Below, one piece after another: positions 1 through 21,701 of a stretch of 32,000 nucleotides of DNA. The position numbers and the translations under genes were made by a program. The stretch lies in assembly GCA_030149205.1 (NCBI GenBank), contig JASBSB010000007.1, forward strand, positions 180,001 to 212,000. The letters run 5' to 3'. Numbering within the stretch: position 1 is the first letter of the stretch; each line of letters starts with the position of its first letter. The notes under the pieces are model-generated. The model did no database searches. It was not told the origin of the DNA and saw only the letters and a list, made by a program, of their open reading frames with translations. The stretch comes from Candidatus Heimdallarchaeota archaeon. Lineage in GTDB: Archaea > Asgardarchaeota > Heimdallarchaeia > Heimdallarchaeales > Kariarchaeaceae.

Positions 1-1971
1 ACATCGACGATGTGATAGTGCAATTATAACTTCATCCAATAGTTCTGCCTTTCTTAATTCATTTCTGATTCCTCTCGCTTGACTAAGAGGGAACAATCCA
101 TGACGTGCTGGTCTAATTCTTCTACTTTTGGCCTTTTCAGGTCTTCCCATCCTTGCACCCATAGTTGTTCCCATAACATCTAAGACTATTAACTCAGAAT
201 GCTGTTGGATAAGATCAAGCCCATCTTTAAATTCTATGTTTTGAATCTTTGTATCTGGCCTTAGTTGTGCTAAAAAGGTCAACTGATACTCAACAAAAAT
301 TCTGTTGTTAGTAATTTTATACAAAGTTAATGATTTATCAAGAATACTTAGAATTTCATCATTTACTGGAGGGTTCTCTTCATTAAAATAATAATGCAGC
401 TTTTGAACCTCTTCTTGTGACAAATATTTCCAAGCGACAAGATATTTAGGATGTAAAGGTATATTTAATTCATTTGAAATTTTAATTGCTTCTTCTTCAT
501 CTGGGGAATGATCCAGCAGCTCTTTCATAAAAGTTGATTTTTTGTAATTAAGTTTAAAATAATCATTGTTTTTTGATCTTAAAATCTGATACCACCATTC
601 TTCAGTAAATCCTGATGGAACTAATCGATAGTTATTCTGAACAAATTCTCCAAATCCAATTAATAAATCACCAACAAATAATATCTTTTCAATTTTTGGG
701 AAAATTTGAACTGCTTTTTCATAACTTGTAACCTCAATTACATCACCTGAGGACAGTTTGACAATTGGTGGTCTAATAGTATCAACAGGTGTGACAATAG
801 AACCTTTTCCCGGTCTTTCTGTTCTTACATGAGTTCCTGGGGCTAAAAAATCATTTAAAACTCCAAAAGTTGCTGGGTGAATTCCTATAGCTGCAATTCC
901 AGTATTTCTTGAATGACCATACCTAACACGAAATCCTCCGGGTTGAGTTGCACCTGAAAAGATTGGTCTTCCCGAAATAGCATCCGATAGGAATGAAAAA
1001 TCTGGGTTAACAACATATTCTCCTTTATTGACATTTTTCTTTTTGGAATTTTTAAAAGTGCTGTATTTCCCAGCTGCGATCTCTTCTATCCACTCCCAAC
1101 CCTCTAAATTAAGCTTTCTGATTCTCTTGAGTAATTTTTTTGCCCTTCCAACAACACCATCATTTAGTACAAGGCAGGCTCCTCCCCTCAGTCTGTTTGT
1201 TTCCATTGATTCAATATTTCTATATCCACTAACTTCTTCTTTCTCAGTGGGGTCACCTGAAATCATAACTGGTAGATTTTTCCAGGTGAATAGTATTTCT
1301 TTATCACTCGTAGGTAACTGAAGATGAACTTTTGAATTATATGCTCTTACCTCTTCTAGCATTCTTTGAGCTTCTGAATCACTGGATTTATATCTCTCAA
1401 GCCCTAACGTTTTTCTCACATGATCTGCAATTAAAATTGATACACCCTGGGCAGTCCCCCCAGCGGATCTAATTGGACCAGAAAAATAAATAACAAGATA
1501 GTTTGACCCATCTGGGTTGGATTTAATACTAACTCTTGAGATCCCTTCAATGGGAGCTGCAGTTATTCCCTCAGTTTGAACTGATAAGGCTGTACGAATC
1601 GCTTGCTCAGCAAGAATCTGAGGAGAACCATTTTCAAATTTCCCCTGAGCTATCTCTTCAGCTATTTTCAAAACAATTTTGTCTTTAGGTAACCGCTCAA
1701 CAAATTCCATCTCCCGGAGTCTTTTCGCTACATTTTTAGGCCCTACTAAACCCTCTGTCCTTGAAGCAACATCTTCAGCTCTATAAATCTCTACGTCATC
1801 TGTGGGATCCAATCTCTTTGCTCTGGCTAACTCAGCCACTTTATGAGCCTCATCTACCAAGCTTTCCAATTTTTGGTGATAGGGAAATTTGTTTGAAAGA
1901 TCTTGAAAAGAATGTTTTTTCACCAATCTTTTCTCATTTGAGTTATCTTTCTCAATACTTGGTATCGACAC
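1..1971 (-). CDS. polC: DNA polymerase II (PolD) large subunit DP2, 5' part; truncated by the window edge and missing from the ORF track
   Basis: Manual minus-strand translation gives DP2 motifs: AHKVAELARAKRLDPT, RTALSVQTEGITAAPIEGI, YFSGPIRSAGGTAQ and GARMGRPEKAK. Likely GTG start at 1971 (TTG at 1980 is an alternative); in-frame stop just upstream. Confidence 0.95.
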   Translation of the reverse strand, partial: MSIPSIEKDNSNEKRLVKKHSFQDLSNKFPYHQKLESLVDEAHKVAELARAKRLDPTDDVEIYRAEDVASRTEGLVGPKNVAKRLREMEFVERLPKDKIVLKIAEEIAQGKFENGSPQILAEQAIRTALSVQTEGITAAPIEGISRVSIKSNPDGSNYLVIYFSGPIRSAGGTAQGVSILIADHVRKTLGLERYKSSDSEAQRMLEEVRAYNSKVHLQLPTSDKEILFTWKNLPVMISGDPTEKEEVSGYRNIESMETNRLRGGACLVLNDGVVGRAKKLLKRIRKLNLEGWEWIEEIAAGKYSTFKNSKKKNVNKGEYVVNPDFSFLSDAISGRPIFSGATQPGGFRVRYGHSRNTGIAAIGIHPATFGVLNDFLAPGTHVRTERPGKGSIVTPVDTIRPPIVKLSSGDVIEVTSYEKAVQIFPKIEKILFVGDLLIGFGEFVQNNYRLVPSGFTEEWWYQILRSKNNDYFKLNYKKSTFMKELLDHSPDEEEAIKISNELNIPLHPKYLVAWKYLSQEEVQKLHYYFNEENPPVNDEILSILDKSLTLYKITNNRIFVEYQLTFLAQLRPDTKIQNIEFKDGLDLIQQHSELIVLDVMGTTMGARMGRPEKAKSRRIRPARHGLFPLSQARGIRNELRKAELLDEVIIALSHRRC

Positions 1972-2078
1972 TAAAAACAACCTGTGAATAAATATTTATC
2001 TGCTTTGCTTAAGGAGAATAAATTAAACTTGTGCTGATGGAAATTAAATTATAAGTGAATTAAATAATTAAAGATAGG

Positions 2079-5181: not shown

Positions 5182-5970
5182 TTGATACAGGAAGCATGGC
5201 TATTTACAAAAGAGGGATTCCCTATTTGGCATTACAGCATGAAGCCAATCCACTACGATGAAAACCTGTTAGGGACATTAATCAGTGCCTTGACTCTCTT
5301 TTCATCAGAGATAAGTGGAGAGAAGATCAAATCTATAGAAATGGGAAATTCAAAATTCTTTGTTTTTACATTTGGAGGGTTAATAACTCTGGCAATTTTT
5401 GGTAATTCCAATAAAATTGATTCTCCTTTGTTGTATAAGATAATTGATAGTATCCAGGAGGCTATCGACCTATTAAAATCAACCTCTGAAATTGATCAGA
5501 GTCTCTTGGACGAGGAGAATCTAAGATTTTACCTTTCAAACCAAATTTTTATGATGGAAAATTGGATGAATAATTCAATTTCAAATTCAAAACCATCGGA
5601 GTTAATAGAGGCTAATTTGTTTGAAGTCACATCAAAGTTGAGCGCGTTAAACTTAAACAAAAAGAAAATCAACCTCGGAATAATATTATTAAAAAACGAA
5701 AAAACCTTCTCAAATATTCTTTATGATGATTCAGATATGAAATCAGATATACAGGATTTAGTCTCCTTGTATTCACAAATATTCAGGGATAAAAACAATA
5801 TCTCTTTACTTCCCCAAATAGTTGAATCAAGAAAATATTGTCTTGGATTCAAAGAATTAAAGAGTGGTTCTTTGCTTATAGTTTTTTGTAAATGGGATGG
5901 AACCGTTGGAAACTCAGTAACCATTAATCAGATAAAGTCTTGGACCAATTTAATAGCTAAACAATTGTAA
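5182..5970 (+). CDS. Longin-like domain protein with a second alpha/beta (possibly roadblock-like) domain
   Basis: N-terminus WLFTKEGFPIW..DENLLGTLISALTLFSSEISGEKIKSIEMG fits the Asgard longin pattern (G-x-P, L-x-x-ISA-x-x-F, I-x-SI); C-terminal domain call is weak. Confidence 0.55.
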   Translation: MIQEAWLFTKEGFPIWHYSMKPIHYDENLLGTLISALTLFSSEISGEKIKSIEMGNSKFFVFTFGGLITLAIFGNSNKIDSPLLYKIIDSIQEAIDLLKSTSEIDQSLLDEENLRFYLSNQIFMMENWMNNSISNSKPSELIEANLFEVTSKLSALNLNKKKINLGIILLKNEKTFSNILYDDSDMKSDIQDLVSLYSQIFRDKNNISLLPQIVESRKYCLGFKELKSGSLLIVFCKWDGTVGNSVTINQIKSWTNLIAKQL

Positions 5971-6189
5971 CTATTTTTCGAATTTAAATGAAATCTTCAC
6001 TCTAATTCTATATAATTTGATTTTTCCATTTTCGACTTTGGCATCCATTTCTTCAACCTTAACAACTCTAAGGTCTCTTAGTGTCTTTGCAGCTTCCTTC
6101 ACTGCATTCTTTGTTGCATCTTCCCAACTGGTTTTCGAAGTTCCGACCAGTTCAATAATTTTGAAACTTGGTAATATTTCTTCATCCAT
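5971..6189 (-). CDS. Dodecin (flavin-binding) family protein
   Basis: KIIELVGTSKTSWEDA..NAV.EA.KTLRDLR..KV......YR...KISF; 72 aa. Confidence 0.92.
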   Translation of the reverse strand: MDEEILPSFKIIELVGTSKTSWEDATKNAVKEAAKTLRDLRVVKVEEMDAKVENGKIKLYRIRVKISFKFEK

Positions 6190-6249
6190 AAATATTCATC
6201 CCCAATTTATTTTTAAATTAGTCATTTTACATACTTTGAATTTGTTAAT

Positions 6250-6534
6250 TTAGTCTTCTAAATTTAGTTCAGGTAGGTCATCTATTGAATCAAAAGACAC
6301 AAATGAATAACTCCCATTTCCTAGAACTACAGTCTTAAACCTCTCAAGATCATTGAAAAATTCCTCGAGGGATGTTTTATTTCTTAAACTTTGAAAATTT
6401 ATATTACCAACAATGATATTTCCACAGGTACAGATTCCACAAAACGCACCAATATTTGCTTTTGTTACAGGTATCTTTAATTTCCACCTAATCGCACACG
6501 AATTACATTCAATTCCAAACTGAATCATATCCAT
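6250..6534 (-). CDS. Small hypothetical protein with putative zinc ribbon
   Basis: CNSC...CGICTCG cysteine pattern; fills the gap between co-oriented genes. Confidence 0.55.
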   Translation of the reverse strand: MDMIQFGIECNSCAIRWKLKIPVTKANIGAFCGICTCGNIIVGNINFQSLRNKTSLEEFFNDLERFKTVVLGNGSYSFVSFDSIDDLPELNLED

Positions 6535-6545
6535 AGTTTAAAAAT

Positions 6546-8129
6546 TCACAGTATCTTTATAATTTTTCGTCTAAGTATAAAGATTGCAAAGAGAGCAGAT
6601 GGTAATAAGATCACTAATAATGGGATGAAAATTTCAGGTGCAAATGGAAATCTGTTATCTTTGATTCTTGGATTTTGATTGAACAAGAACTCGTTTAGAT
6701 TGCTATAACCATCAAGATCAATATCAATCTTAGAGTCACTTGAATTTAAGGGATTTAAATTGTAAGTATATTCCCATCCGTCAGGAATACCATCATTATC
6801 AGAATCTGCCTTTAGGGGGTTTGTATTTATTTGGCCCTCAATACTGTTTATTAACCCATCATTATCTAAATCTTGTAAATCATCAGCTTTCAATAACGGG
6901 TCTAATTTATATTTTATTTCCCAACCATCAGGGGCACCCCCAAAATCTGTATCTGCCAACCTAGGTGATGTACCAATAATAAATTCATTCAGATTGGTTA
7001 AACCGTCATTATCCAGATCCAACTCAGTGTCCCTCAAATTCGGATTGGTTCCAAAAGCAACCTCAGATAAATCATTAATCGAATCTCCATCTGAATCTGG
7101 ATTATCCTTTTGAGTTTGATAATAAGTTTCACTCACATCTGGCAAACCATCATTATCTGAGTCAATTCCATAGTATCTAATTGCCAACCCTCTAAACATA
7201 GTTATTGAGAGAAGAAGTGATTTATCAATAAAGGATATATCCAGAAATTTTCCTTTGGTTTGAATCAAAGTTGATTGATTTTGAAAATAAGAATAAAGAG
7301 AGCCATTGGAGGTTTGAATGAAAGAAGAGTTGCTTCCAAATCGAAAAATTTTCTCAGTTTGAGTAGGAATTTGATAAGACTTGTTACTCTTAAGGATTGT
7401 GGCTAGATGGTTATTCAGATCAAACAGTGTCAGATTGAAATTAAAAAAATTATTAAATTTAAATCCAGAATGACCTATAACTGTGTTATTGGACACATTA
7501 ACTCGAATTGGGTTTAAATCCCCGTACAACCAAATTGAATTATTTGTATGTACAAGTGCATAATTTTGCCATGTATCAATAATAAATAACTTCGACGTCT
7601 TTTTTTCATAGGTAAGCCCATTCCATTTTATTTCTACATTATTTAATCCATCATACCCTTGAATAATCCAACTCCTATTTGAAATGTCGAAATAAGCCTT
7701 TGTATTAATCAAAGTGGAGCTGAGAGTAATTTTATACTCTTTATGTAAGGGTGATTTCCAAATTAATGAAGTAGAGTTAACGTTAGATCCAATAACTAGT
7801 AACTCTGTATTGAATGAAAATGAGTTAACCTGGAAATACACATTATTTAGAATATCAATTGTCATAAATCCATTAACAAAATTTACTATTATAGGTAAGT
7901 TATAGCCATTTATTTTGGAAAGCAAAACAATTTGTGCTCTTCCAATGTTTCCATCGACAGTATAAGGATGAGTTTGTGCACTTGTAATTGGAAACTGTGT
8001 ATCATCAAAATTCCAGACAGATATATCAGGGTCAGGAATTTTAACTTCTGTCAGTCCATTTATCTGTGTGTTTGAATGAGTTGAAAATAAAATAATTATA
8101 AAAAGTAGCAAAGATTTGGCATACTTCAA
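6546..8129 (-). CDS. Secreted, C-terminally membrane-anchored surface protein with DxDxDG calcium-binding repeats (thrombospondin type-3 / binary-toxin-B-like)
   Basis: Signal peptide (KYAK + hydrophobic run), beta-rich N domain, seven DxDxDG-type repeats, C-terminal TM (IFIPLLVILLPSALFAIFIL) plus basic tail. TTG start. Confidence 0.85.
   Translation of the reverse strand: MKYAKSLLLFIIILFSTHSNTQINGLTEVKIPDPDISVWNFDDTQFPITSAQTHPYTVDGNIGRAQIVLLSKINGYNLPIIVNFVNGFMTIDILNNVYFQVNSFSFNTELLVIGSNVNSTSLIWKSPLHKEYKITLSSTLINTKAYFDISNRSWIIQGYDGLNNVEIKWNGLTYEKKTSKLFIIDTWQNYALVHTNNSIWLYGDLNPIRVNVSNNTVIGHSGFKFNNFFNFNLTLFDLNNHLATILKSNKSYQIPTQTEKIFRFGSNSSFIQTSNGSLYSYFQNQSTLIQTKGKFLDISFIDKSLLLSITMFRGLAIRYYGIDSDNDGLPDVSETYYQTQKDNPDSDGDSINDLSEVAFGTNPNLRDTELDLDNDGLTNLNEFIIGTSPRLADTDFGGAPDGWEIKYKLDPLLKADDLQDLDNDGLINSIEGQINTNPLKADSDNDGIPDGWEYTYNLNPLNSSDSKIDIDLDGYSNLNEFLFNQNPRIKDNRFPFAPEIFIPLLVILLPSALFAIFILRRKIIKIL
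6687..7163 (-). repeat. Seven tandem Ca-binding peptide repeats within the surface protein
   Basis: DSDNDGLPD, DSDGDSIND, DLDNDGLTN, DTDFGGAPD, DLDNDGLIN, DSDNDGIPD, DIDLDGYSN; each followed by an E and a T(N/S)P- or L(D/N)P-type motif. Confidence 0.85.
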
Positions 8130-8374
8130 TGTAAGTTAAAATTGATTAAGACATATAATAAAATATCGATTTAATGGAAGGATAATTTAGAATTCATCAA
8201 GATTAGGACATTTAAATATACCTATGTTCATCACACAGAATCACAAAACATATATTTCTATTAAATTCCTATTTGTTTCTCCAATTTCCATTAACTGCTT
8301 ATAGAATTGGTATTAAAAGTTGAAATTATCAACCCTCAACCTCTCTAAATAACAAAATTGTGGTTTTAATTATA

Positions 8375-8396
8375 TTTCCAAAAGAAGTAAGGGGGT
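8375..8396 (+). promoter_or_regulatory. Isolated ORB-like element
   Basis: TTTCCAAAAGAAGTAAGGGGGT matches the element at 11754-11775 (minus) at 15 of 22 positions, including the G-string. Confidence 0.3.
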
Positions 8397-8471
8397 AATC
8401 ACAGAAAATTACGTGAAATCACAAAATTTACACATAAATAGAGTGTATATTAGGTTTAAGTGTGATTATAC

Positions 8472-9254
8472 TTACACCAATACCTTGATTTCCGATGGTT
8501 CCTTTGGAGATGTTTCAATGTTAAGAAGGTAAGAAATGTAAGAAATAAAGGTTATTGGAAAATTCTCAATATCATCAGAAACCGATTTAGGGAAGGTAGA
8601 ATTCTTTATCTCTGAAATAACTGATGATATTTTATCATGGTTTAAAAAGATCAAACTGTTAGGAGGGAGTACATTTTGATCAATATCTAAGTTTGAATAG
8701 AAATACAGCGTTGGTTTTTCTAGCTTTTGATAAATTTTAAGAAATTCAATCAGTAAATTTGAAAATTCAGGAGATTGAAAAGTGAATAATAGTTTATCAA
8801 AGCAAAAATTAAGTGAATAAGAAGGTCCATTTTTAAGAATCGTCATTATTATTGACTTCGTATCATTTTTTATGAACTGAAAATTTGACTTAATAATGGG
8901 TTCTTTTACATTGCTAAAGTATTGTGAAACTTGATGCTTAACATCAATTAACTCATCCATAGGTATACTTCTTAAGGCTTCATTAACCAAAGACTGATCA
9001 CTGATAAATTCTGAAAAATCATGGACATCGTTAATCCCAAGACGTTCAAATTTGTGAATTACATCTTTAGAAACACCAGGTAAGTTGGTTAAGAGGGGAG
9101 TTTGAATAGCCTTTTCTCTTACTTTTCTATCAGCTAATTTTGCATATAGACTTGGGAAAAAGAATAAGTTTGCTTCAATATCTTTTGAACCTGATAATAA
9201 AAACTTGGTTTTTGAAGACATAATATAACTGCTTATAAGTTTATTAAAACACAT
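8472..9254 (-). CDS. Hypothetical protein with a helix-hairpin-helix (HhH) motif
   Basis: LTNLPGVSKDVIHKFERLGINDVHDF resembles the HhH consensus L-x-x-LPGVG...L-x-x-x-G-x-x-x-V-x-D. The start may be Met12. Confidence 0.55.
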   Translation of the reverse strand: MCFNKLISSYIMSSKTKFLLSGSKDIEANLFFFPSLYAKLADRKVREKAIQTPLLTNLPGVSKDVIHKFERLGINDVHDFSEFISDQSLVNEALRSIPMDELIDVKHQVSQYFSNVKEPIIKSNFQFIKNDTKSIIMTILKNGPSYSLNFCFDKLLFTFQSPEFSNLLIEFLKIYQKLEKPTLYFYSNLDIDQNVLPPNSLIFLNHDKISSVISEIKNSTFPKSVSDDIENFPITFISYISYLLNIETSPKEPSEIKVLV

Positions 9255-9280
9255 TAAAATTTAGATTTCTAAATTTGAAT

Positions 9281-9293
9281 TTCTCGCGCTCAA
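9281..9293 (+). promoter_or_regulatory. CGCG-core upstream motif, copy 1 (upstream of rpl21e)
   Basis: TTCTCGCGCTCAA, similar to TTTACGCGCTCAC (21768-21780, minus) and TTTACGCGTCAA (22516-22527). Confidence 0.4.
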
Positions 9294-9344
9294 TCGAATT
9301 CTATTAAAAGCAAGGAAAAAATAAATATTAAGAAGGAATACTCC

Positions 9345-9653
9345 ATGAGAAAATCAAAAGGATTCGATAATCGAACAAGAAAATTATTTAAAAGAAAAGC
9401 CAGAGAAAAGGGATTAAAATCTTTAAGATATCTTCTTGAACCCTTTGAGGTTGGACAAAATGTAGATATTATTTTGAACTCCCAAGAACAACGAGGTAGA
9501 CCACATAAGAGATATCATGGGAAAAAAGGTGTTGTTTCTAAGATTCAGGGACAATCATATGTAATTATGGTTAAAACTGGGAACAGTGAAACACAGATTA
9601 TCTCAAGACCTGAACACTTAAGACCTTCTCATGTTTTTAGTGAAGAGGAGTAA
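9345..9653 (+). CDS. rpl21e: 50S ribosomal protein eL21
   Basis: MRKSKGF..RTRKLF.RK.RE+G...FEVGQNVDI...RGRPHKRYHGKKGVV...IISRPEHLRP. Confidence 0.97.
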   Translation: MRKSKGFDNRTRKLFKRKAREKGLKSLRYLLEPFEVGQNVDIILNSQEQRGRPHKRYHGKKGVVSKIQGQSYVIMVKTGNSETQIISRPEHLRPSHVFSEEE

Positions 9654-9665
9654 GGATTCTATAGT

Positions 9666-10133
9666 ATGCCAAAAGAGATCCATTCTTACAAACCAATTTC
9701 TATTCCTGAAGTAAGAGAGATATTAAAATCGAGGAAAAAAGATGCTGAGGAGTTAGGGGAAGAACTTAGTTATATCCAATCTGTTGCTTTGGATCACGCT
9801 GTCATAGTTTCAAGAACTTCTTCAGATGAAGCAATAAAAACAGTCAAGAAATTAGTCAAAGAGTTCAAGATAAGTGAAATGGGTGCTATTGCTCTCGTAA
9901 ATTATTTACCAGGATCTGTCCATTCTGTCAGAGTGTTGCTTGATACCGAGGGAAAAAATAAGGAAACATCAGAATTAGAACAGATTTTAGAAGTTCTTAA
10001 TGGAGTCAAAAGAATTAACGCACGTGAGATAGAGAAAAAAGAAGAAGAAGAAAAGGAATTAGTAGAAGAACCACTTGATGAACCAAGTGAAGAAAAAGAA
10101 CTACCAGATGTAATTCCTGAGGATCTTTTATAA
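9666..10133 (+). CDS. rpo4: RNA polymerase subunit Rpo4 (RpoF) with acidic C-terminal tail
   Basis: KPISIPEVREIL...ELSYIQ..ALDHA, ALVNYLPGS...VR..L; canonical rpl21e-rpoF-DUF655 order. Confidence 0.9.
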   Translation: MPKEIHSYKPISIPEVREILKSRKKDAEELGEELSYIQSVALDHAVIVSRTSSDEAIKTVKKLVKEFKISEMGAIALVNYLPGSVHSVRVLLDTEGKNKETSELEQILEVLNGVKRINAREIEKKEEEEKELVEEPLDEPSEEKELPDVIPEDLL

Positions 10134-10253: not shown

Positions 10254-10910
10254 GTGGAGATACACAAAATGAGTGAGACAGAAAAACGAGGTCAGACTGA
10301 TAAAAAATATGAAGAAAAAGCAATCATTCTGGACACATTTTCACCTGATATAAACAGAAGATATGAGAAATATAAAGGTAAGTTGATTGCTCAGGCAGTT
10401 GGAAAAACGTGGTTTACTTTGTTTGAACTGGTTATAAAAGAAGGATACTCGATAATTTTGCAAGACGAAGTTAATCTAAACAAGGATTCAAGAGAGGAAG
10501 TTGAAACTATAATTGGAAGAATAGGCTATGACAAACTTACAAATATCGGGACCTCTCAGCTTGAGATAATTATAAACAAGATAATTAAGGAGAGAGAGGA
10601 TTATTTTGTAAAATGGTTCAATAAAACACCTCCAATAAGTATCAGACTACACTCATTGCAGCTAATTAAAGGAATTGGTCCTAAATTAATGCAATCCATA
10701 CTAAAGGAACGAGAAAAACAACCTTTTACAAGTTTTGAAGATATCCAAGAAAGAGTCGGGATTAGTAACATTCAGAATTTAATAAAACAGAGAATATTAG
10801 AAGAGATAATGGATCCAAACGAAAAACATAAGCTTTTCACCAGACAACAAAAGGATAAAAGAGAGTATAATAAGCGGCCATCATTTAGAAGGAGAAGAAA
10901 TAACTATTAA
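10254..10910 (+). CDS. DUF655 family protein (HhH, putative RNA-binding)
   Basis: EEKAIILD, AQAVGKTWFTLFEL, RLHSLQLIKGIGPK, PFTSFEDIQERV; conserved position after rpoF. The ATG at 10269 is an alternative start. Confidence 0.92.
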   Translation: MEIHKMSETEKRGQTDKKYEEKAIILDTFSPDINRRYEKYKGKLIAQAVGKTWFTLFELVIKEGYSIILQDEVNLNKDSREEVETIIGRIGYDKLTNIGTSQLEIIINKIIKEREDYFVKWFNKTPPISIRLHSLQLIKGIGPKLMQSILKEREKQPFTSFEDIQERVGISNIQNLIKQRILEEIMDPNEKHKLFTRQQKDKREYNKRPSFRRRRNNY

Positions 10911-11608
10911 ACCCCTCTTTTAGGTCCCCACACAGTGAGATGTAGTCTTGTTGTTAAATTATATCCTGTGGACTTACATATCTCAATTAAATTTGGAAGC
11001 TTTTGTACCATTTCAGAATGATTTCTAGATTGAGGCATGAGATATATCTTCTTAGCTAATGAATCTTCTGAAAGAGCTTCTAACAAAAATTCAATTTCCT
11101 TAATTTCTTCATAATTTCCCTCAACAACAAATTTAAGTTGAAAATCTTTCCCTTTGTCATCAACAAATTTCTTTAGTTCTGGGATCTTAACTCTTTGCTG
11201 CTCGTGTACTTTTTCAAATCTTCCTTTTGGGGTAGAATTAGATAATTTCGGACTTAGTGAAATGAAATCAGCTGATGTAGAGACAAATCTTGTTCCATTT
11301 GTTTCTATAGTTACAAAATAATCCAGATTTTTTAAAGAATCAATTAAGGTTGGAAGGTCAGATTGCAAGAAAGGTTCACCTCCTGTTATGACGATATGAG
11401 GCTTAGTTGGTGAATTATAACTTAGATTATTTATTTCTTTCAATATCTCTTCGATGGTTTTGGAGTTTTTCTCCGGATTCCAGCTGGTGTATGGTGTATC
11501 ACACCATTTACATCTTAAGTTACAGTATGAGGTCCGAACAAAAATAGATGGAACACCTATATACTTTCCTTCACCCTGAATTGAATAAAAAATTTCAGAG
11601 ATTTTCAT
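10907..11608 (-). CDS. queE: 7-carboxy-7-deazaguanine synthase (radical SAM)
   Basis: EIFYSIQGEG, CNLRCKWCDT (CxxxCxxC), VITGGEPFLQ, IETNGT, SLSPKLSNS, RLHLTVWG. Confidence 0.95.
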   Translation of the reverse strand: MKISEIFYSIQGEGKYIGVPSIFVRTSYCNLRCKWCDTPYTSWNPEKNSKTIEEILKEINNLSYNSPTKPHIVITGGEPFLQSDLPTLIDSLKNLDYFVTIETNGTRFVSTSADFISLSPKLSNSTPKGRFEKVHEQQRVKIPELKKFVDDKGKDFQLKFVVEGNYEEIKEIEFLLEALSEDSLAKKIYLMPQSRNHSEMVQKLPNLIEICKSTGYNLTTRLHLTVWGPKRGV

Positions 11609-11625: not shown

Positions 11626-11637
11626 TTCATAAGAAAC
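11626..11637 (+). promoter_or_regulatory. Mini-ORB-like element
   Basis: TTCA-TAA-GAAAC; the 11-mer TTCATAAGAAA recurs inverted at 11893-11903. Confidence 0.4.
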
Positions 11638-11753
11638 AGAATTTAAAATATTATAGACTGGTTAACATAATTACAAAAGAAAAAAGTCATATTATCCAAA
11701 AAAGGTCAATCTTTGGTATTACAATATAAAACAAAGTAATATTATACCCTAGA

Positions 11754-11775
11754 ACCCCTTTATTTCACGTAGAAC
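11754..11775 (-). promoter_or_regulatory. ORB-like origin recognition box A
   Basis: Minus strand reads GTTCTACGTGAAATAAAGGGGT, fitting the archaeal ORB pattern GTTCCA-N3-GAAA(C/T)-N-GGGG. Confidence 0.65.
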
Positions 11776-11959
11776 AATAATTAAAACAGGTATTTTGAAT
11801 TTTACAAATAATGAAAGATATTCAAAATTCCAGAATAAAATCCTAATGAATAAATAAAATAAAATTAAATAAAAATAGAGTATGGGGTGTTATTTCTTAT
11901 GAAAATAATATTAATATTATTTTTATCAAGTAAAATTATTTTATACATGTAAATTCTAA
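11776..11959. other. AT-rich spacer, candidate duplex unwinding element
   Basis: Hand count 28 G/C in 184 bp (~85% AT), bounded by two inverted ORB-like boxes. Confidence 0.55.
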
Positions 11960-11982
11960 GGTCCATTTGAAATGGTAGGGGT
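11960..11982 (+). promoter_or_regulatory. ORB-like origin recognition box B
   Basis: GGTCCATTTGAAATGGTAGGGGT: TCCA-N3-GAAAT core plus G-string, inverted relative to box A. Confidence 0.7.
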
Positions 11983-12662
11983 ATGGACACATTATCCTGA
12001 TCTAATTCTTTTTCTTACCAGTTACTTGTTAAATGATGTGTAATCCCTAATTGAAGAGAGATTTCTGATAAATTTCCGCTGTAGAAGCGCGCTTTCAGGT
12101 GAACAAATCCTACAAATTGTGACATGAAATATTATAATTAACCACATTAAAATTTACTATATCATTATTTATGATGATTTTATTACTATTAGGGCTTTAA
12201 ATTGCGTAGTAATACAAATTAATTATTGGTCATATCTTTGTCTAGGAAATTTTACTTCAGGTTAATTAAATTTCCTTCACCCTTCAAACGGTATATTATG
12301 TTTTTAGCAATTCCAAAAGAAAGATAAAAGCAAACAAAATTTATTTATTTATTGATATAAAATTGATTCTCTTTCTATTTCCTTAACCAATTATTCTTAG
12401 TTCTAGTTAAGTAAATTCAATATCATCAGTATATCTTTACGTAATATTTATTGAAACTAAGTAAAACTGAATTGTTAAATCTATGAGTAATAGGTCTTTT
12501 TCTTCTCTAACCATTTATTATAGCATCCATTTGGTTATTTTACTTATTCAATATAAAAGAATAAATTTTTTTCTTAAACTTAGTTTTTTCAAATTTTTGT
12601 GAATCTAACTAGAAGGTAATAAAGGTCACATATCAAATTTGAATTATAACTGGAGAATCAAA

Positions 12663-12845
12663 ATGACAAAAGGAACACCATCTTATGGTAAACACAACAA
12701 AAGAGGCTCTCATATCATATGTAGAAGATGTGGAAAGCATAGTCTTCACATGCAGAAAAAAATTTGTGCAAGTTGTGGATTTGGTAGAACAGCTAAAAGA
12801 AAGGCATCTGGATGGAGAAAATTAAAAGACTACTCAAAAAGGTAA
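12663..12845 (+). CDS. rpl37e: 50S ribosomal protein eL37
   Basis: [35 protein letters not shown] at 12663 follows GGAGA and is preferred over the ORF-track TTG at 12639. Confidence 0.97.
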
Positions 12846-15281: not shown

Positions 15282-17591
15282 ATGAGTAAGAACTTCTTAA
15301 ACCATCCTCGGATAAAACCTGACAAGGTTGAGGCAAGATTATATCAACAGTTATTGTTTGGTGCAGCAGTGAAAGAGAACATTTTGTTAGTTCTTCCAAC
15401 TGGATTAGGGAAAACTGTAATTGTAGTTATGTTGTTTGCTTATTTTTTGGATAAATACCCTGATATGAAGTTGGTTATGACTGCTCCAACACGTCCATTA
15501 ATTGAACAACATGTACAAACAATGGAGTCAATGCTGCAAGTTGATCCTGAGTTTATCATCTCCCTTTCAGGGACTATTCCTCCTCCTCAAAGAAAAGGAC
15601 TGTGGAAGAAGGGGAAGATCTTAATTACAACTCCCCAAACATTAAGAAATGATATTATCTCAAACACATGCGATTTAAAATCAATTAGCTTTCTCTGCAT
15701 TGATGAAGCTCATCGATTAGTTGGTGAGGATAGCACAGTGTTGATTGCAGAGCAATATCGAAATTTAAACCCTGGGGGTAAATTAGTAGGTATTACTGCC
15801 TCTCCAGGATCGAAGGAAAAGATCCTAGAAATAATCAAACATTTGGGTGCTACAAATGTTGAGTTTATGAATGAGGATGATCATACAGTTAAGCCCTATG
15901 TTCATGAGACAAAGGAAGACAAGGTAATTGTTCACCTTCCAGAAGATTTTGAATTTATCTTTAAAAATCTAAAAGCGTTGTTTAATGAAATGATGAAGGT
16001 GTTAATCGAAACTGATGTCATCAAATCAAAGAATTCTATAACAAAAACTAAGCTAATCGCACTTACTAAGGAGCTCAATAAAGAGAGAGGAAGATTGGAA
16101 GATGATGAATTCTTTGCTGCAATGAGCGCAGTCGGGCATGCTCTTCGGATCTCACATGCGCTTGAAGTGTTGGAAACTCAGGGAGTACCAAACCTCTATA
16201 AATATTTCGAGAAACAGAAAAGGGAGTATCAAACAAGCAAAAAGAACTCTCTCAGAAAATTTATGAATCTTCCTCATATGCCAGAAGTCATAGATCATAC
16301 TCGACAACTTTTTGAATCAGGAGTTGTTCACCCAAAGTTAGATGTTTTAATTCAGTTGGTTGAGAAAGAATTTGCTAAGGAAGTTTCAAGCAAAGTTTTA
16401 GTTTTCACAAATTATAGAGATACAGCGAAATTACTATCTGATTATTTGAATAAAATAGAAATTGTTAATTCACAGTGGTTCGTAGGACAAAAATCATCAT
16501 CATTGGACCAAGGTTTAAAACAAAGGGAACAAGTTGAAATTCTAAATAGATTTAAAACAGGTGATATCAATGTCCTTGTAAGTACTTCTGTTGGAGAGGA
16601 GGGTCTAGATGTTTCACAATGTGATTTGGTCATTTTTTATGATATAGTTCCTTCTGCAACTCGATTAATACAAAGAACAGGTAGAACTGGAAGAGCAAGA
16701 AAAGGAAGGGTCATATTTTTGATCGCAAAAGGAACCAGAGATGAAGGTTATTATTACGCATCACAAAATAACAGAGAAAGGTTGAAAAACGAAATAGAAG
16801 AAGTTAAATCAGAACTTAATTCTTCAAAGCAGACCGGTTTAACCAATTTTTTTGAAAACCAAGGGGAAAACAAAGATTTCCCCAGTAAAAATGAGGTAAT
16901 CCAAGATGGTGATTCTTCTTCAAAAGAATCTAATAGTTCACCTATGATTATTATGGATTTAAGAGAGAAAGGTTCTTCAGTTGTGAGACATTTGTTGAAT
17001 CAAGAGATCAACCTAAATGTACAACAGTTAGATGTTGCAGATTATATTCTTTCTAAGAGGGTTGCTGTTGAGAGAAAAACAGTGGAGGACTTTACTTCAA
17101 CTTTGATTCGTGAAGATTTGTTTCCACAACTTTTAAAACTTAAACAGTCATTTTCTAAGCCAATTTTAGTGATTGAAGGTTCTAATCTATACTCAAGTAC
17201 TCTCTCTCAGAACTCAATCAGAGGGACAATTTCATCTATACTTGTAGATTTAGGGATTCCGATTCTGTTCACAGAAAATGAGGAAGAAACTGCATTATAT
17301 TTAGAAAGAATCGCTAAAAGAGAGCAGAAGAGGGAAAACCGTACCCCCAGAATAAAATCCACCAAAGGTTCAAACTCAATGAAAGAGGAACAGCTGAAAA
17401 TGATTTCCAGTATTTCTCACATTAATCTCAAAACTGCAGAAAATCTGTTAAATGAATTTTTAACATTGAGGAACATTGCCAATCAAAATCAGGATGAACT
17501 GAGAAAGGTCAGAGGAATTGGTAAAAAGCTTGCTAATGATATTGAGTTATTATTTACAACTCCCTTTGATGAATCAGGTGAATCCCTTTAA
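15282..17591 (+). CDS. hef: Hef helicase-nuclease (FANCM/XPF-like; SF2 helicase + ERCC4 nuclease + HhH)
   Basis: EARLYQ, LPTGLGKT, DEAH, TASPG, STSVGEEGLD, QRTGRTGR; nuclease ADY..VERKTVEDF; C-terminal VRGIGKK HhH. Confidence 0.96.
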   Translation: MSKNFLNHPRIKPDKVEARLYQQLLFGAAVKENILLVLPTGLGKTVIVVMLFAYFLDKYPDMKLVMTAPTRPLIEQHVQTMESMLQVDPEFIISLSGTIPPPQRKGLWKKGKILITTPQTLRNDIISNTCDLKSISFLCIDEAHRLVGEDSTVLIAEQYRNLNPGGKLVGITASPGSKEKILEIIKHLGATNVEFMNEDDHTVKPYVHETKEDKVIVHLPEDFEFIFKNLKALFNEMMKVLIETDVIKSKNSITKTKLIALTKELNKERGRLEDDEFFAAMSAVGHALRISHALEVLETQGVPNLYKYFEKQKREYQTSKKNSLRKFMNLPHMPEVIDHTRQLFESGVVHPKLDVLIQLVEKEFAKEVSSKVLVFTNYRDTAKLLSDYLNKIEIVNSQWFVGQKSSSLDQGLKQREQVEILNRFKTGDINVLVSTSVGEEGLDVSQCDLVIFYDIVPSATRLIQRTGRTGRARKGRVIFLIAKGTRDEGYYYASQNNRERLKNEIEEVKSELNSSKQTGLTNFFENQGENKDFPSKNEVIQDGDSSSKESNSSPMIIMDLREKGSSVVRHLLNQEINLNVQQLDVADYILSKRVAVERKTVEDFTSTLIREDLFPQLLKLKQSFSKPILVIEGSNLYSSTLSQNSIRGTISSILVDLGIPILFTENEEETALYLERIAKREQKRENRTPRIKSTKGSNSMKEEQLKMISSISHINLKTAENLLNEFLTLRNIANQNQDELRKVRGIGKKLANDIELLFTTPFDESGESL

Positions 17592-18136
17592 ATTAAGGTT
17601 AAATTATAATTTTTAATAAGGAAGGCCATAGTCTCATCCTTAGATAAGAACTGCTTTTTGGGAATTTTATTTCTTTTAATTGATCTATCTTTAACTCTGT
17701 ATCCAGCTCTTTTCATTTGTACTATTACGTCAAATCCATAGATACCCACATTCGGATCATAGTTCATACCTGGTATATCGATATGTTCACTAACTCCGAA
17801 CGCAAAGTTTCCCTGATCATCAATAGAACTCGATTTTAATTTGTATTCATTTGCATGGAAAAGTTTCATAAGCAGCTCATAAGCTTTTTCTCCTCTTACA
17901 GTAATTTTAGCTCCTACTGCTTGCCCTCTCCTAATGTTCCATTTTTTCCATGTTTGTTTTGAATATGTATCTACAGGTGTTTGACCACAAAGCTCACTCA
18001 ACACAGCTTTACCTCTGTTGAGTGGTTCTCCAGCCATTCCTAAACTTAGATTTAACTTAATTGAATTAATTTTTGGTCTGAACATGGGCTGTTCTTCCCA
18101 ATTTTTGTATATTTTATTTAGTTCTTCTTCATTCAT
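17588..18136 (-). CDS. rpl5: 50S ribosomal protein uL5
   Basis: PMFRPKI, GQTPV, WNIRRGQAVGAKITVRG, GNFAFGVSEHIDIPG.YDPNVGIYG, RAGYRV. Confidence 0.97.
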   Translation of the reverse strand: MNEEELNKIYKNWEEQPMFRPKINSIKLNLSLGMAGEPLNRGKAVLSELCGQTPVDTYSKQTWKKWNIRRGQAVGAKITVRGEKAYELLMKLFHANEYKLKSSSIDDQGNFAFGVSEHIDIPGMNYDPNVGIYGFDVIVQMKRAGYRVKDRSIKRNKIPKKQFLSKDETMAFLIKNYNLTLI

Positions 18137-18138
18137 TT

Positions 18139-18879
18139 TTATGCCACCAACGTTATCGCAGGAGTATCTTCACCAATTATGAAAACATAATGAAGTGATG
18201 TTGAAAAGCTTTCCTCCTCTTTTGTTGAGAAAGTGACTTCAGATGCATTTGGACCAAATCTTTTGTTAATCTCAATAATGCTTCCCATTTTGCCTTGATG
18301 ATGCCCCTCTGTAACCATTGCTAAGGAAGATTCTTCAAATTTGTAAATTTCTTTAATCTCCTGAGATGGTATTTCAATTAGAAGGGATCCATTAACTTTT
18401 ATGTCTTTTAGCCTTTTATCACCATTTTCTAATAAAACATTTCTTCCATCATGTAACGAAATCTGAGTTTTATTGTTTCGAAGGTTGCGTTTTCCGACAA
18501 CTTTACATAGCTTTGTAGAAGCTTCATCCAATGGGATTTCAAATGCTCTTAGCTTTCCAGATTTATGGTACTGAATTCTGTAATATTTATCAGTTCCTTT
18601 TAGATGAACAACATCCATATGTCCAACAGGAAATGCTAGATCTTTTCTTATTCTTCCATCCACTTCTACTCTCTCATTAGTAAGAATGTATTTTACCTCT
18701 CTTTTCGACTCAGCTACACCTAAAACATCTCTTAAAAGAACTATGAGTGGCATACCCTGGCTCTTTGAGTGCGGTCCAGGTCTGATTTTAGTTACAAATT
18801 TTGAACCTTTTCTGCTAATTGGCCAAACCTTGGGTGATGCAGGTCTTTTTAGATGTCTTTTTCCACCAGTCTTTGTCAT
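18139..18879 (-). CDS. rps4e: 30S ribosomal protein eS4
   Basis: HLKR..P..WPI.RK, PGPH, PL..LLRD.L, VDGRIRKD..FPVG.MDV; GGAGGT SD upstream. Confidence 0.97.
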   Translation of the reverse strand: MTKTGGKRHLKRPASPKVWPISRKGSKFVTKIRPGPHSKSQGMPLIVLLRDVLGVAESKREVKYILTNERVEVDGRIRKDLAFPVGHMDVVHLKGTDKYYRIQYHKSGKLRAFEIPLDEASTKLCKVVGKRNLRNNKTQISLHDGRNVLLENGDKRLKDIKVNGSLLIEIPSQEIKEIYKFEESSLAMVTEGHHQGKMGSIIEINKRFGPNASEVTFSTKEEESFSTSLHYVFIIGEDTPAITLVA

Positions 18880-19451
18880 TCTTTTTCTACCTCCTCATTT
18901 TCTGAGCTGTGTTCTGATTCAACGACCTCATCGTCATCATCTTCAACAACCTCTTCGTCATCAGTTTCTTCATCTTCAACAAACTCATCTTCTTCTGCGT
19001 TTTCTTCATCTAATTCTGCTTCATCAAAATCAATAACATCTTCTTCTTCAACAATAGAATCAAAATCAATTTTTGCTTCTTCATCTTTGGTTCTTCTGTT
19101 AATCAATCCTACTCTAAATCTGTCCCTTGATTTATGAATTTTTGTAATTATAAGGTTTGAAGGATGAAAGAAAATTGGGACAGGATCTTTATTGGTCTTG
19201 TTTCTTGTAAGCTTTTCAATTACGACATATCTGTCTTGAGGTTCGACTCGAACCACCTTAGCTTTTTTACCCTTATGTTCTCCTCTGACAATTAGCACTT
19301 CGTCCTTTGGTCTGACAGGAAGAGATCGAAATCCTCTCTCCTCTTTTAATTCCTTGGAAAGATGAACTGATACGAGCTTATGAGATTCATTCAAAGGGAT
19401 GTTGAATTCATACTTTCTTTGTTTTTTTGGTTTTTTACTCTTTGGTCTCAC
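18876..19451 (-). CDS. rpl24: 50S ribosomal protein uL24 with ~70-aa acidic C-terminal tail
   Basis: SKKPKKQRK, HLSKELKE..GFRSLPVR..DEV.IVRG..KG, HPSNLIITK; GTG start. Confidence 0.95.
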   Translation of the reverse strand: MRPKSKKPKKQRKYEFNIPLNESHKLVSVHLSKELKEERGFRSLPVRPKDEVLIVRGEHKGKKAKVVRVEPQDRYVVIEKLTRNKTNKDPVPIFFHPSNLIITKIHKSRDRFRVGLINRRTKDEEAKIDFDSIVEEEDVIDFDEAELDEENAEEDEFVEDEETDDEEVVEDDDDEVVESEHSSENEEVEKE

Positions 19452-19456
19452 TTAAT

Positions 19457-19873
19457 TTACACCACCATACTTGCAATACTTCCAATTCTTGGCCATCTTC
19501 CGACAGCCTCCCTTGCGATTGGTCCTTTTGCTTCTGTACCCTTTGGGTCACCCTGTGGATTTACAACTATCACAGCGTTATCTTCAAATCTGATTACCTC
19601 TCCATTCTCCCTAGTATAAGGTCTCTTTTGTCTAACCACAATACATGGGAATATAGACCTCCTCATACTTTGAGATCCTTTCTTTACAGAGGCAATAACC
19701 ATATCACCAACTGTGGCTCTTGGATATCTGTTCAGTCTTCCTTTGTATCCATGGACAGCAATAACCTGAACAATTTTTGCTCCAGAATTATCTGCAACTT
19801 TAATTTTAGTTCCAACTTGTATCCCGTTGCTTGTTCTTACTCTTGGTGTTCCAGCAGTTTTTCTCTTTGCCAT
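19457..19873 (-). CDS. rpl14: 50S ribosomal protein uL14
   Basis: VADNSGAK, GRLNRYPRATVGDM, VRQKRPY, FEDNAV.VV, GPIAREA..RWPRI; GAGGTGA SD. Confidence 0.98.
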   Translation of the reverse strand: MAKRKTAGTPRVRTSNGIQVGTKIKVADNSGAKIVQVIAVHGYKGRLNRYPRATVGDMVIASVKKGSQSMRRSIFPCIVVRQKRPYTRENGEVIRFEDNAVIVVNPQGDPKGTEAKGPIAREAVGRWPRIGSIASMVV

Positions 19874-19878
19874 TCATT

Positions 19879-20208
19879 TCACCTCTTCTCAATAACAACA
19901 AAAGACTTACTCTTTGAGATAGGTCTTGATTCCATAGCTCTAACAGTATCACCAATTTTTAGTTCCAAACAGCTTGGTGCATGTGCAGAGATAACTCCTT
20001 TTCTTCTTTCATACCTATCATACTTTTTCACTAGATTCAAGAAATCTCTTTGAATGACAACAGTGTTATTCATTTTATCGGAGACTACTTTTCCTTCGAA
20101 AATTCTTCCTCTTAACCTGATTGTACCATGAAACGGACAATGTCTATCATCACAGGTTTTTTCAGGGGCAGGTACATCTATTCCAATGTTTCTAATTCTT
20201 CCCGTCAT
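19879..20208 (-). CDS. rps17: 30S ribosomal protein uS17
   Basis: RNIGIDV..P...CDD.HCPFHG.IRLRGR, KYDRYERR, SRPISKSKSFVV. Confidence 0.98.
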   Translation of the reverse strand: MTGRIRNIGIDVPAPEKTCDDRHCPFHGTIRLRGRIFEGKVVSDKMNNTVVIQRDFLNLVKKYDRYERRKGVISAHAPSCLELKIGDTVRAMESRPISKSKSFVVIEKR

Positions 20209-20250
20209 ATTACAGACCTACGTTGAATTTAAGCCTCAAAGTCTAGTCTA

Positions 20251-20276
20251 TTTTTATAAAATTGATAACCCTATCA
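20251..20276 (-). promoter_or_regulatory. Putative TATA box with adjacent palindrome TGATA-N4-TATCA upstream of the uS17 operon
   Basis: Minus strand TTTTATAAAAA about 50 nt upstream of the rps17 ATG; palindrome at 20263-20276 sits in the BRE position. Confidence 0.5.
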
Positions 20277-20389
20277 CTTTCAATAGAGGCAAATTGATCA
20301 GATCCTGATATCTGTACAGGCTATCAATGAGATTTCAGGTGAGAGCTAGACTTTTACCTTAATCTAATATCAAAGTTTCTTATTTATTT

Positions 20390-20395
20390 AAAAAA
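20390..20395 (-). terminator. Possible oligo-U terminator after rnp1
   Basis: T6 tract on the minus strand ~55 nt after the rnp1 stop; archaeal intrinsic terminators are oligo-U tracts. Confidence 0.3.
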
Positions 20396-20448
20396 GTCCT
20401 GTTGCATATCAGGTAATTACAATATGGATGTCTGATTCTAAACGCGTG

Positions 20449-20736
20449 TTACCAGGTTTTAATTTTTCTATTTCTTCTATCCTTTGCCTTTCCTTTTAGA
20501 TACGTTCCACTTATTACAAATTGATAGTTTTCTATCCTGTATTTACCCTCTTTTTCTTTTTGAGCAATTATTAATTTTCCATTTTGAGTTTTTAATACAA
20601 AGACGTTTTTCAAATCTAAAATAATTTTAAATTTTTGTCCAATTTGTTGAGTACTAAGTGATTTTGATTCAATGACTGTAAGGTTTTTTCCACTCAAATC
20701 TTTTGAAATAAGCTTTTTAATTATTTTCAAGTTCAT
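20449..20736 (-). CDS. rnp1: Ribonuclease P protein component 1 (Rpp29/Pop4), divergent
   Basis: Canonical position between uL29 and uS17, expected size and Sm-like beta pattern (LSGKNLTVIES...VISGTYL), but HELIG, DET and RPEER are altered. Confidence 0.7.
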   Translation of the reverse strand: MNLKIIKKLISKDLSGKNLTVIESKSLSTQQIGQKFKIILDLKNVFVLKTQNGKLIIAQKEKEGKYRIENYQFVISGTYLKGKAKDRRNRKIKTW

Positions 20737-20926
20737 GTTTTATGGTAAGTAAAGCTGCAATTTCTTTCTTTAATTCTCTTGGTTTGGTAGGATCACCAAT
20801 AGATCCTCCAGAGGACAATTGTGCTCTGACATCCATTAACTCTTTTCTAGCTGCGATTAATCTGGACTCTAATTTATCTGGATTTTCTCTGAAATCCTTC
20901 TTTTTGCTAACTTTCATCTTCATCAC
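20717..20926 (-). CDS. rpl29: 50S ribosomal protein uL29
   Basis: RKELM..RAQ.SSGG...DP.K.RELKKEIAALLTI; follows uS3. Confidence 0.9.
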   Translation of the reverse strand: MMKMKVSKKKDFRENPDKLESRLIAARKELMDVRAQLSSGGSIGDPTKPRELKKEIAALLTIKHELENN

Positions 20927-21701
20927 CTAAATTGATTGTTTCACCAAGCTCTTCATCCTCAATCTCTAATGCTTCTTCAGGGATTTCTTCCAATGTTTCT
21001 AGTTCATCAAAGCTATCAGAGAGATCTTTTGTGAATTCATCATCTTCTTCTTCAAAATGATCATTTGTTTCATCAGTTATAATCTCTTTTGATTTGTGCG
21101 TTGGTTCTTCGATTATATCAACATGATCAGGAAGGACGGAATTTGGCATCATAATTAAAACTGAGATTCCGAGGATTCCTCTTTTAATTTTTGCAACAGC
21201 ATAACCCTTTCTAACGAATTTTCTCTTTGGATCACCAGTTTTTGCAATGAATCCATCTCTAAATTTTTCTACTCTTGCTCTTTGAGAAGTTATTTTTCCT
21301 GCAACTATAATTTCAACCCCAAGGGCACCCTTTGCCATTATTCTTCTGACTGTTCCATAAGCAGTTCTTCGGAAGTGTCTGCCTCTTTGTAATGAGGATG
21401 CTAATCTAACTGCCATTACATCAGGATTTAAGTCTGGATCATCAAGCTGATCCACCTCTATTTGCACATCCTCAGAATTAAGAATGTTTTTTACATCCTC
21501 AGAAATTTTCTTTATTGTTTTTCCTTTCTTTCCTATGGCATATCCTACCCTACCCACTTTCAACGTTATTCTTGTACCAGTGGGAGCTTGTTGGTAATCC
21601 ATGTCTCCGAATTCAGCCTGCTCTAATTCATTTTTTAAATACTCTTTGAGCAGGATTTCCTTTACCTTTCCTTCAGTTATCTTTTTTACTATTGGTGGCA
21701 G
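20907..21701 (-). CDS. rps3: 30S ribosomal protein uS3 with acidic tail; probable CTG start at 21701
   Basis: KH domain (GTRITL...GYAIGKKGKTI) and LQRGRHFRRTAY...GALGVEI.VAGK. The frame extends 33 codons upstream of the ORF-track ATG (LPPIVKKITEGKVKEILLKEYLKNELEQAEFGD) up to an in-frame TGA at 21710-21708. Confidence 0.95.
   Translation of the reverse strand: MPPIVKKITEGKVKEILLKEYLKNELEQAEFGDMDYQQAPTGTRITLKVGRVGYAIGKKGKTIKKISEDVKNILNSEDVQIEVDQLDDPDLNPDVMAVRLASSLQRGRHFRRTAYGTVRRIMAKGALGVEIIVAGKITSQRARVEKFRDGFIAKTGDPKRKFVRKGYAVAKIKRGILGISVLIMMPNSVLPDHVDIIEEPTHKSKEIITDETNDHFEEEDDEFTKDLSDSFDELETLEEIPEEALEIEDEELGETINLGDEDES

Follow-up and report, generated by a model that had tools for sequence, protein, structure and literature searches.

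Two inverted boxes around an AT-rich spacer

The window, i.e., the whole stretch of 32,000 nucleotides analysed here, is G000:C8:180001-212000 of an assembly of 3.31 Mb (12 contigs, ~35% GC). The genome is referred to as G000, its relatives as G001 and so on, and contigs as C2, C8 etc.; positions given with no contig name are those of the window. The largest ORF-free gap in the window lies between two divergent genes, a queE-like radical SAM gene and the ribosomal protein L37e gene (rpl37e). It measured 1030 bp, close to the ~1050 bp of the earlier note, which had proposed a chromosomal replication origin at this place. Table 1 lists the features of the gap and the sites elsewhere with which they are compared.

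All four boxes that the earlier note had described in the gap were found in the sequence at the same positions and on the same strands. Two of them form an inverted 11-bp pair of mini-boxes, TTCATAAGAAA, at 11626-11636(+) and 11893-11903(-). The other two, ORB-A and ORB-B, show the full ORB sequence, with a core of the TCCA-N3-GAAA type, a short linker and a G-string; the 4-nt linker class of ORB-B is also present in G007:C345. The full boxes are arranged as (-)ORB, spacer, (+)ORB, with the core ends pointing inward and the G-strings outward, and the spacer between them measured 184 bp and 84.8% AT, in agreement with the previous description (184 bp, ~85% AT). In addition to the two full ORBs, three mini-ORBs are located within 450 bp. 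The reading of the boxes as ORBs was borne out: they are true sites of the ORB type, inverted in the canonical way around a DUE-like core. We refer to this module, in which two inverted ORBs flank an AT-rich candidate duplex unwinding element (DUE), as site A2. A2 does not have the form of an Orc1-dependent promoter operator (a lone box or a close pair with no DUE), because its two full boxes stand 184 bp apart and are accompanied by an extreme AT core and three mini-boxes.

Rfam searches of the window at gathering thresholds and of the gap at permissive thresholds revealed no credible RNA family. The only two matches, to microRNAs (E about 0.7-0.9), were attributed to chance.

Table 1. Coordinates of the sites and genes discussed in the text
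Feature	Position	Strand	Sequence or remark
Site A1	8130..8471	.	positional ortholog of the same-genus ORB cluster; (A)ATCACA repeats, one degenerate ORB
ORB-C	8374..8397	+	TTCCAAAAGAAGTAAGGGGG; GAAG replacing GAAA; 18.9 bits; followed by ATCACA repeats
queE-like radical SAM gene	10907..11608	-	left border of the gap; top NCBIfam matches all QueE, under curated cut-offs
Mini-ORB m1	11626..11637	+	TTCATAAGAAAC; 18 bp upstream of the start codon of the queE-like gene
ORB-A (full)	11754-11775	-	GTTCTACGTGAAATAAAGGGGT; TCTA-N3-GAAAT, AAA, GGGG; core end toward spacer
AT-rich spacer, candidate DUE	11776..11959	.	184 bp, 84.8% AT
Mini-ORB m2	11892..11903	-	TTCATAAGAAAT; within spacer, 129 bp from ORB-A, same strand, without G-string
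ORB-B (full)	11960-11982	+	GGTCCATTTGAAATGGTAGGGGT; TCCA-N3-GAAAT, GGTA, GGGG; 4-nt linker; core end toward spacer
Mini-ORB m3	12061..12072	-	TTTATCAGAAAT
GC palindrome	12084..12096	.	GAAGCGCGCTTTC; single occurrence in genome
Additional mini-ORB-like core	12311..12322	+	TTCCAAAAGAAA; arm of a repeat, read by eye
rpl37e	12639..12845	+	right border of the gap
Palindrome counterparts	G002:C64:119-132; G003:C204:64033-64046		form GAAG(G)CGCGC(C)TT
orc1/cdc6 paralog (orc1-2 of the C8 pair)	C8:248818-249906		57 kb from A2
orc1-1	C8:252973-254058		61 kb from A2; 397.7 bits on TIGR02928
Third orc1/cdc6 paralog	C4:261661-262743		
Four AT islands	C2:306956-307905; C4:715174-716204; C4:919219-920147; C8:326895-327652		non-coding, ~1 kb, 85-91% AT

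The arrangement is unique in the genome

A position weight matrix (PWM) was trained solely on the ORBs of relatives' genomes, and the reversed genome served as the control. ORB-A scored 20.2 bits and ORB-B, when a 4-nt spacer was allowed, 19.4 bits; both exceeded every control match (maximum 16.2 bits in an ungapped scan of the reversed genome). With a loose ORB regular expression, 30 matches were found in the 3.3-Mb assembly, among which ORB-A and ORB-B were the only pair no more than 1 kb apart. A high frequency of comparable paired boxes across the genome had been named beforehand as a result that would refute an origin, and no further pair of this kind was found in the 3.3 Mb. ORBs of both G001 and G003 agree in 15 nt with the 3' half of ORB-A.

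The mini-ORB core, T[CT][CT]A-N3-GAAA[CT], is a frequent word (794 matches, compared to 525 in the reversed-sequence control), but the region 11626-12072 is the only one in the assembly with five matches clustered within 450 bp. By a rough estimate, an exact 11-bp inverted repeat is unremarkable in 1 kb of 76% AT DNA; what gives the mini-boxes weight is their match to the ORB core rather than their repetition. As for the spacer, only 0.048% of the 184-bp windows of the genome are as AT-rich; it is one of 17 regions with at least 84% AT over 184 bp, and within it, 11845-11944 is the least stable 100-bp duplex of the 32-kb window (top 0.018% genome-wide). Certain other high scorers of the PWM (C7:306491, C2:96602 and C2:67936) and a group of mini-ORBs at C8:26234-26515 fall within coding sequences and were set aside as fortuitous.

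Kinship with the orc1-adjacent ORBs of relatives

In each of the 41 related genomes searched, the ORB pattern was more frequent than a reversed-pattern control. G014 and G018 have a (-)ORB, an AT-rich spacer of ~145 bp and a (+)ORB directly upstream of orc1/cdc6, in the same layout as A2; in G037 and G024, an ORB is found 1.3 kb from orc1. Alignment of the A2 boxes with nine ORBs from relatives indicated that they are of the chromosomal, orc1-adjacent type of related families. The A2 boxes are degenerate relative to the relatives' boxes. In G020, a complete genome, the best ORB is located 125 bp upstream of the gene for PolD DP2. The PolD DP2 gene of the present genome (window 1-1980, minus strand) lies 6.4 kb from the ORB of site A1 (see below), facing it as in G020; about 10 kb from A2, it corresponds to the polC that had been placed ~10 kb away. 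The G020 gene (locus positions 5662-9999) contains an intein with a LAGLIDADG endonuclease domain.

As the earlier note had remarked, no orc1/cdc6 gene adjoins the boxes. Such adjacency is usual but not obligatory, and here the two nearest of three paralogs in the assembly are 57-61 kb away. The origin-adjacent Orc1 proteins of G014, G018 and G037 are 49-52% identical to the product of orc1-1 but only 26-32% to those of the other two paralogs. Based on this identity, the presumed reader of the boxes, a cognate initiator of the Orc1-1 type, is encoded in this genome, 61 kb from A2. Beside the orc1 genes, no repeat array comparable with that of A2 was found. The 224-bp gap upstream of orc1-1 contains an inverted pair of mini-ORBs (TTTATATGAAAC and TCCAAAAGAAAC, 19 bp apart, C8:252785-252826), which may serve autoregulation; no ORBs are present upstream of orc1-1 in its two closest relatives found in the genome-collection scan (75-76% identical).

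orc1-1 and orc1-2 diverge from each other around a gene for an 836-aa HerA/TrwB-like ATPase, and orc1-1 is followed by a 204-aa gene and the 23S rRNA gene (C8:255460-258678, plus strand). The 16S rRNA gene (C2:630352-631803, minus strand) is on another contig, and the two rRNA genes do not form one operon. The previous assignment of the DNA to a probable Asgard chromosome stands and can be narrowed to the Heimdall group; relatives carry Arf/Ras/Roc GTPases.

Site A1 and the history of the zone

A second site, A1, is located 3.3 kb left of A2. In three same-genus genomes (G001, G002 and G003), the corresponding ORB cluster lies beside a TSP3-repeat gene; in G003, where the contig continues, a DUF655-RpoF-L21e block is found opposite. 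A cluster of the A1 type is also present in G007, in another gene context. The relatives' clusters consist of two full boxes 124 bp apart and mini-boxes, flanked by (A)ATCACA repeats. The repeats (window 8230-8250 and 8398-8430) flank A1-type ORBs in G000, G001, G002, G003 and G007, and their position is occupied by TACAC-type repeats in G014. We know of no reader protein for the (A)ATCACA repeats.

Conservation of the intergenic region in relatives was one of the points on which the earlier note had let its proposal depend. For the full boxes, this expectation failed: they are absent from the homologous place in the same-genus relatives (no full ORBs in the rpl21e-upstream regions of G002 and G003), whose ORB cluster lies 3.3 kb to the left. 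The gap upstream of rpl37e is only about 120 bp long in relatives, and none of the relatives examined shares the 1-kb gap of this genome. What is conserved is the zone, with an A1-type cluster in G001, G002 and G003 and a GC palindrome in G002 and G003. A genome collection scanned with Orc1-1 and metagenomes scanned with QueE yielded no closer relatives.

The counterpart of the palindrome, GAAGGCGCGCCTT(C/T), is unique in G002 and in G003 and is located about 400 bp upstream of rpl21e. Three species of the genus each have a single copy of the palindrome, of the form GAAG(G)CGCGC(C)TT, in every case within this AT-rich zone; it could be a binding site for some factor. The eukaryotic E2F site has the form TTT-SGCGC; compared by eye, the palindrome does not fit it, the flanks being reversed. 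A match in G009 was discarded because it lies inside a coding region. Since the palindrome is shared and unique, A2 descends at least in part from the rpl21e-upstream region.

Relative to G003, the three genes between A1 and A2 form an inverted block, and the thermosome gene has crossed the zone and switched strands. A simple inversion that carried A1 to A2 conflicts with the orientation of the palindrome; the region has been rearranged. We infer an origin zone of ~4 kb whose box-rich core varies from one sister species to another. A shift of this core from A1 to A2 seems to have taken place in the present lineage, and A1 would be the older ORB site, better kept in the sister species.

The queE-like gene was of no use in tracking A2, because it is found in other contexts in G001 and G002 (with neighbours that match C8:115-116 kb) and in G007. 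Its best metagenome matches are 41-48% identical, and its context is different in every relative examined, which suggests that the gene is mobile or was recently relocated. For two uncharacterised neighbours (260 aa and 337 aa), Protein Atlas searches returned nothing related to replication.

Strand composition and gene orientation

Plain and third-codon GC skew along C8 rise from 0 to 150 kb, remain level from 150 to 260 kb and then fall. After correction for gene orientation, the skew is +0.03 to +0.115 at 20-160 kb, about 0 at 160-250 kb and -0.06 to -0.156 at 260-320 kb; contigs other than C8 show little skew. The inflection that had been anticipated at the boxes is missing: over +-50 kb around A2, the shift in residual GC3 skew amounts to -0.006 (49th percentile). 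Across the assembly, the downward change is strongest at C8:220-240 kb on the +-100 kb scale and at C8:260-265 kb on the +-50 kb scale, nearer to the orc1 pair than to A2. This broad change, from G-rich to C-rich on the plus strand, is centred 30-70 kb right of A2 and is gradual rather than sharp.

Inverted GC-skew polarity, with a C-rich leading strand, has been reported for haloarchaea (PMC1868953). Only under such inverted polarity does the broad change on C8 mark an origin; under standard polarity it is a zone of fork convergence. G001 and G003 have a strong skew with this sign too (+0.15 to +0.19) as far as their ORB cluster, where the contigs end, and minus-strand genes are in excess there. 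At the ORB of G015, a complete genome, the skew has a weak minimum of standard polarity, so that the two families would need differing polarity. Calibration of the polarity with other relatives failed, as there is almost no skew in G037 and G026, and the flanks in G007, G008, G014 and G018, being short, gave too much noise. With no local change at A2 and a gradual shift beside it, the skew neither pinpoints nor excludes A2.

Genes left of A2 are mostly on the minus strand and those to the right are mixed to plus, a divergence that reaches only the 84th-86th percentile. The 23S rRNA gene is directed away from the zone. The ribosomal-protein operon at 17588-21602(-) is directed toward A2 and would meet forks from A2 head-on.

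Lone ORBs and AT islands elsewhere in the genome

The best ORB match of the genome (25.0 bits, TTCCATAGGAAATAGTGGGG) is a solitary box at C8:99829-99852. It stands in a gap from which a gene for a class II ribonucleotide reductase (minus strand) and an esterase gene (plus strand) diverge. Because of its position upstream of the reductase gene, this box looks regulatory, and it may be an Orc1 operator on a gene for dNTP supply. It and the ORB upstream of the DP2 gene in G020 fit a promoter-operator pattern. A further intergenic site, C8:426051-426150, is bordered by a gene of 105 aa and one for a luciferase-like monooxygenase; it combines a mini-ORB on the minus strand (TCCATAAGAAAT) with a full ORB on the plus strand (24.9 bits), about 70 bp apart. 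Around this site on C8, gene orientation diverges strongly (95th percentile at +-50 kb), and G001:C93 has the same inverted pair at the syntenic spot. ORB-A, ORB-B and ORB-C, at 19-20 bits, are weaker matches than two lone intergenic ORBs of this genome at 25 bits, the box upstream of the reductase gene being one of them.

Four AT islands are set among ordinary chromosomal genes; they contain no ORBs and have no sequence in common beyond low-complexity AT. At the islands, the orientation-corrected GC3 skew jumps upward with standard polarity (98.5th, 98.9th, 77th and 96.5th percentiles), so that three of the four jumps rank among the top 3.5% of the genome. Within 15-30 kb the signal has faded, and local gene content may therefore account for the jumps. 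The islands are either rival candidates for origins or oddities of composition.

A probable Orc1-type origin and its alternatives

The sequence evidence for A2 as a real Orc1-type origin module is strong. We consider that this module probably is a functional chromosomal replication origin of the Orc1/Cdc6 type (oriC1-like), with a probability of roughly 0.55. Of the original claim of a chromosomal origin, the ORB-DUE architecture has held, whereas a local skew change and full boxes at the relatives' homologous spot are wanting. By analogy with characterised systems, Orc1-1, encoded 61 kb away, would bind ORB-A and ORB-B, the core ends of which are face to face, and the three or four mini-ORBs would contribute further, possibly cooperative, binding. 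The spacer of 184 bp and 85% AT would then melt, and MCM would be loaded there. A2 and the older A1 would together form one origin zone of roughly 4 kb.

A2 may instead be a dormant or relic origin, or a regulatory or architectural site that is bound by Orc1 and does not fire; we regard this as possible, if on balance doubtful. Replication would then start elsewhere, perhaps beside the orc1-1/orc1-2 pair (C8:249-265 kb) or at the AT islands, and the boxes would be what is left of an ancestral origin, or else operators for Orc1. Dormant origins have been documented in Haloferax mediterranei (PMC4595724), and we count this in favour of dormancy at A2. The skew points the same way, with no change at A2, a downward change that is sharpest at C8:260-265 kb (+-50 kb) and broad at 220-240 kb, and sharp upward jumps at the AT islands. 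So do the degenerate state of the A2 boxes relative to those of relatives and the ORBs in promoter regions, i.e., those upstream of the ribonucleotide reductase gene and the G020 DP2 gene and the mini-ORB pair upstream of orc1-1, which imply that ORBs in this lineage need not mark sites of initiation. However, an operator has no need of two inverted full boxes flanking one of the most AT-rich 184-mers of the genome, and a decaying relic would be expected to resemble A1, with its one degenerate box, rather than A2. The places proposed for initiation also lack what A2 has: no comparable repeat array is found beside the orc1 genes, and the AT islands are free of ORBs and lose their skew signal within 15-30 kb.

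A bolder form of this alternative, which we hold to be quite unlikely, uncouples Orc1 boxes from initiation altogether. Replication would start at the ~1-kb, ORB-less islands of 85-90% AT, and A2 would be a dormant or otherwise employed Orc1 platform in a zone of fork convergence. The argument for it is that sharp upward jumps in skew with standard polarity are found nowhere but at the islands. If true, the islands would be origins defined by AT content, similar in kind to those of eukaryotes.

Archaea are known to have gained multiple origins by capturing extrachromosomal ones, and A2 might accordingly have been the origin of an integrated plasmid or virus, or been captured from one, rather than the ancestral chromosomal origin. 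The 1-kb gap, which the relatives examined lack, and the adjoining queE-like gene, which is found in other contexts in G001, G002 and G007 and has metagenome matches of only 41-48%, would suit such a history. We nevertheless find it very improbable. No integrase, rep or other mobile-element gene was found among the window ORFs scanned and no tRNA gene in the window; the neighbours are core genes (L37e, L21e, RpoF, NcsA-like and Hef); the ORBs are of the type that adjoins chromosomal orc1 in related families; and the surrounding zone is syntenic within the genus. It is just as hard to believe that an AT-rich divergent promoter region in an AT-rich genome holds ORB-like words by chance, for although the mini-ORB core is common and several PWM matches of 17-19 bits inside coding regions are clearly fortuitous, two boxes of 19-20 bits (control at most 16.2 bits), 184 bp apart, correctly inverted and with top-0.05% AT between them, coincide here with the sole five-match cluster in 3.3 Mb and with the 15 nt that ORB-A shares with the G001 and G003 ORBs.

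Comparison with known archaeal origins

The oriC of Pyrococcus/Thermococcus contains ORB and mini-ORB repeats bound by Cdc6/Orc1 (PMC1904270). Like A2, it combines full ORBs and mini-ORBs with a core of the TTCCA-N3-GAAAT type, and its boxes are inverted around an AT-rich region. PolD genes are nearby in both cases; here, DP2 is 6-10 kb away, and the ORB of G020 is at 125 bp. In contrast to A2, which is known from its sequence and has its nearest orc1 at 57 kb, the Thermococcales origin abuts cdc6 and its binding was demonstrated by ChIP. A2 also differs from it in having no local support from composition skew.

In Sulfolobus/Saccharolobus, oriC1 is reportedly an ORB-DUE-ORB module bound by Orc1-1, a finding attributed to Robinson et al. 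in 2004, a study cited in PMC12680538. The Sulfolobus oriC1 lies beside orc1-1 and was mapped by 2D gels and marker-frequency analysis. It resembles A2 in the inverted full ORBs with G-strings that flank a DUE and in a single initiator of the Orc1-1 type, presumed in the case of A2. A2 is detached from its presumed initiator gene, and its comparison with the mapped oriC1 is one of sequence. Unlike Sulfolobus, the sister species of the present genome have (A)ATCACA repeats beside their ORBs.

Haloarchaeal origins almost always adjoin orc/cdc6, and ARS assays and marker-frequency analysis have proven that they are active (PMC4010727, PMC1868953, PMC4595724). Haloarchaeal oriC1 shares G-string ORBs with the A2 genome, and both have several orc1/cdc6 paralogs, not all of which are linked to origins; A2 differs in that no orc1 adjoins it. 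If the A2 zone is an origin, inverted GC-skew polarity would also be common to both, and dormancy is possible.

Significance

A2 has a textbook architecture and is therefore not a new kind of element. A literature search revealed no description of ORBs or of a replication origin in Asgard archaea. The Heimdall-group archaea are the closest known relatives of eukaryotes. As a predicted, sequence-defined target of Orc1, A2 would be a substrate for biochemistry with Heimdall Orc1 paralogs and MCM, and an anchor for analyses of depth profiles. With its detached initiator gene, the apparent 3.3-kb shift of the box core between sister species and the disagreement between boxes and skew, this genome lends itself to the question of how tightly origins are tied to initiator boxes on the archaeal side of eukaryote ancestry.
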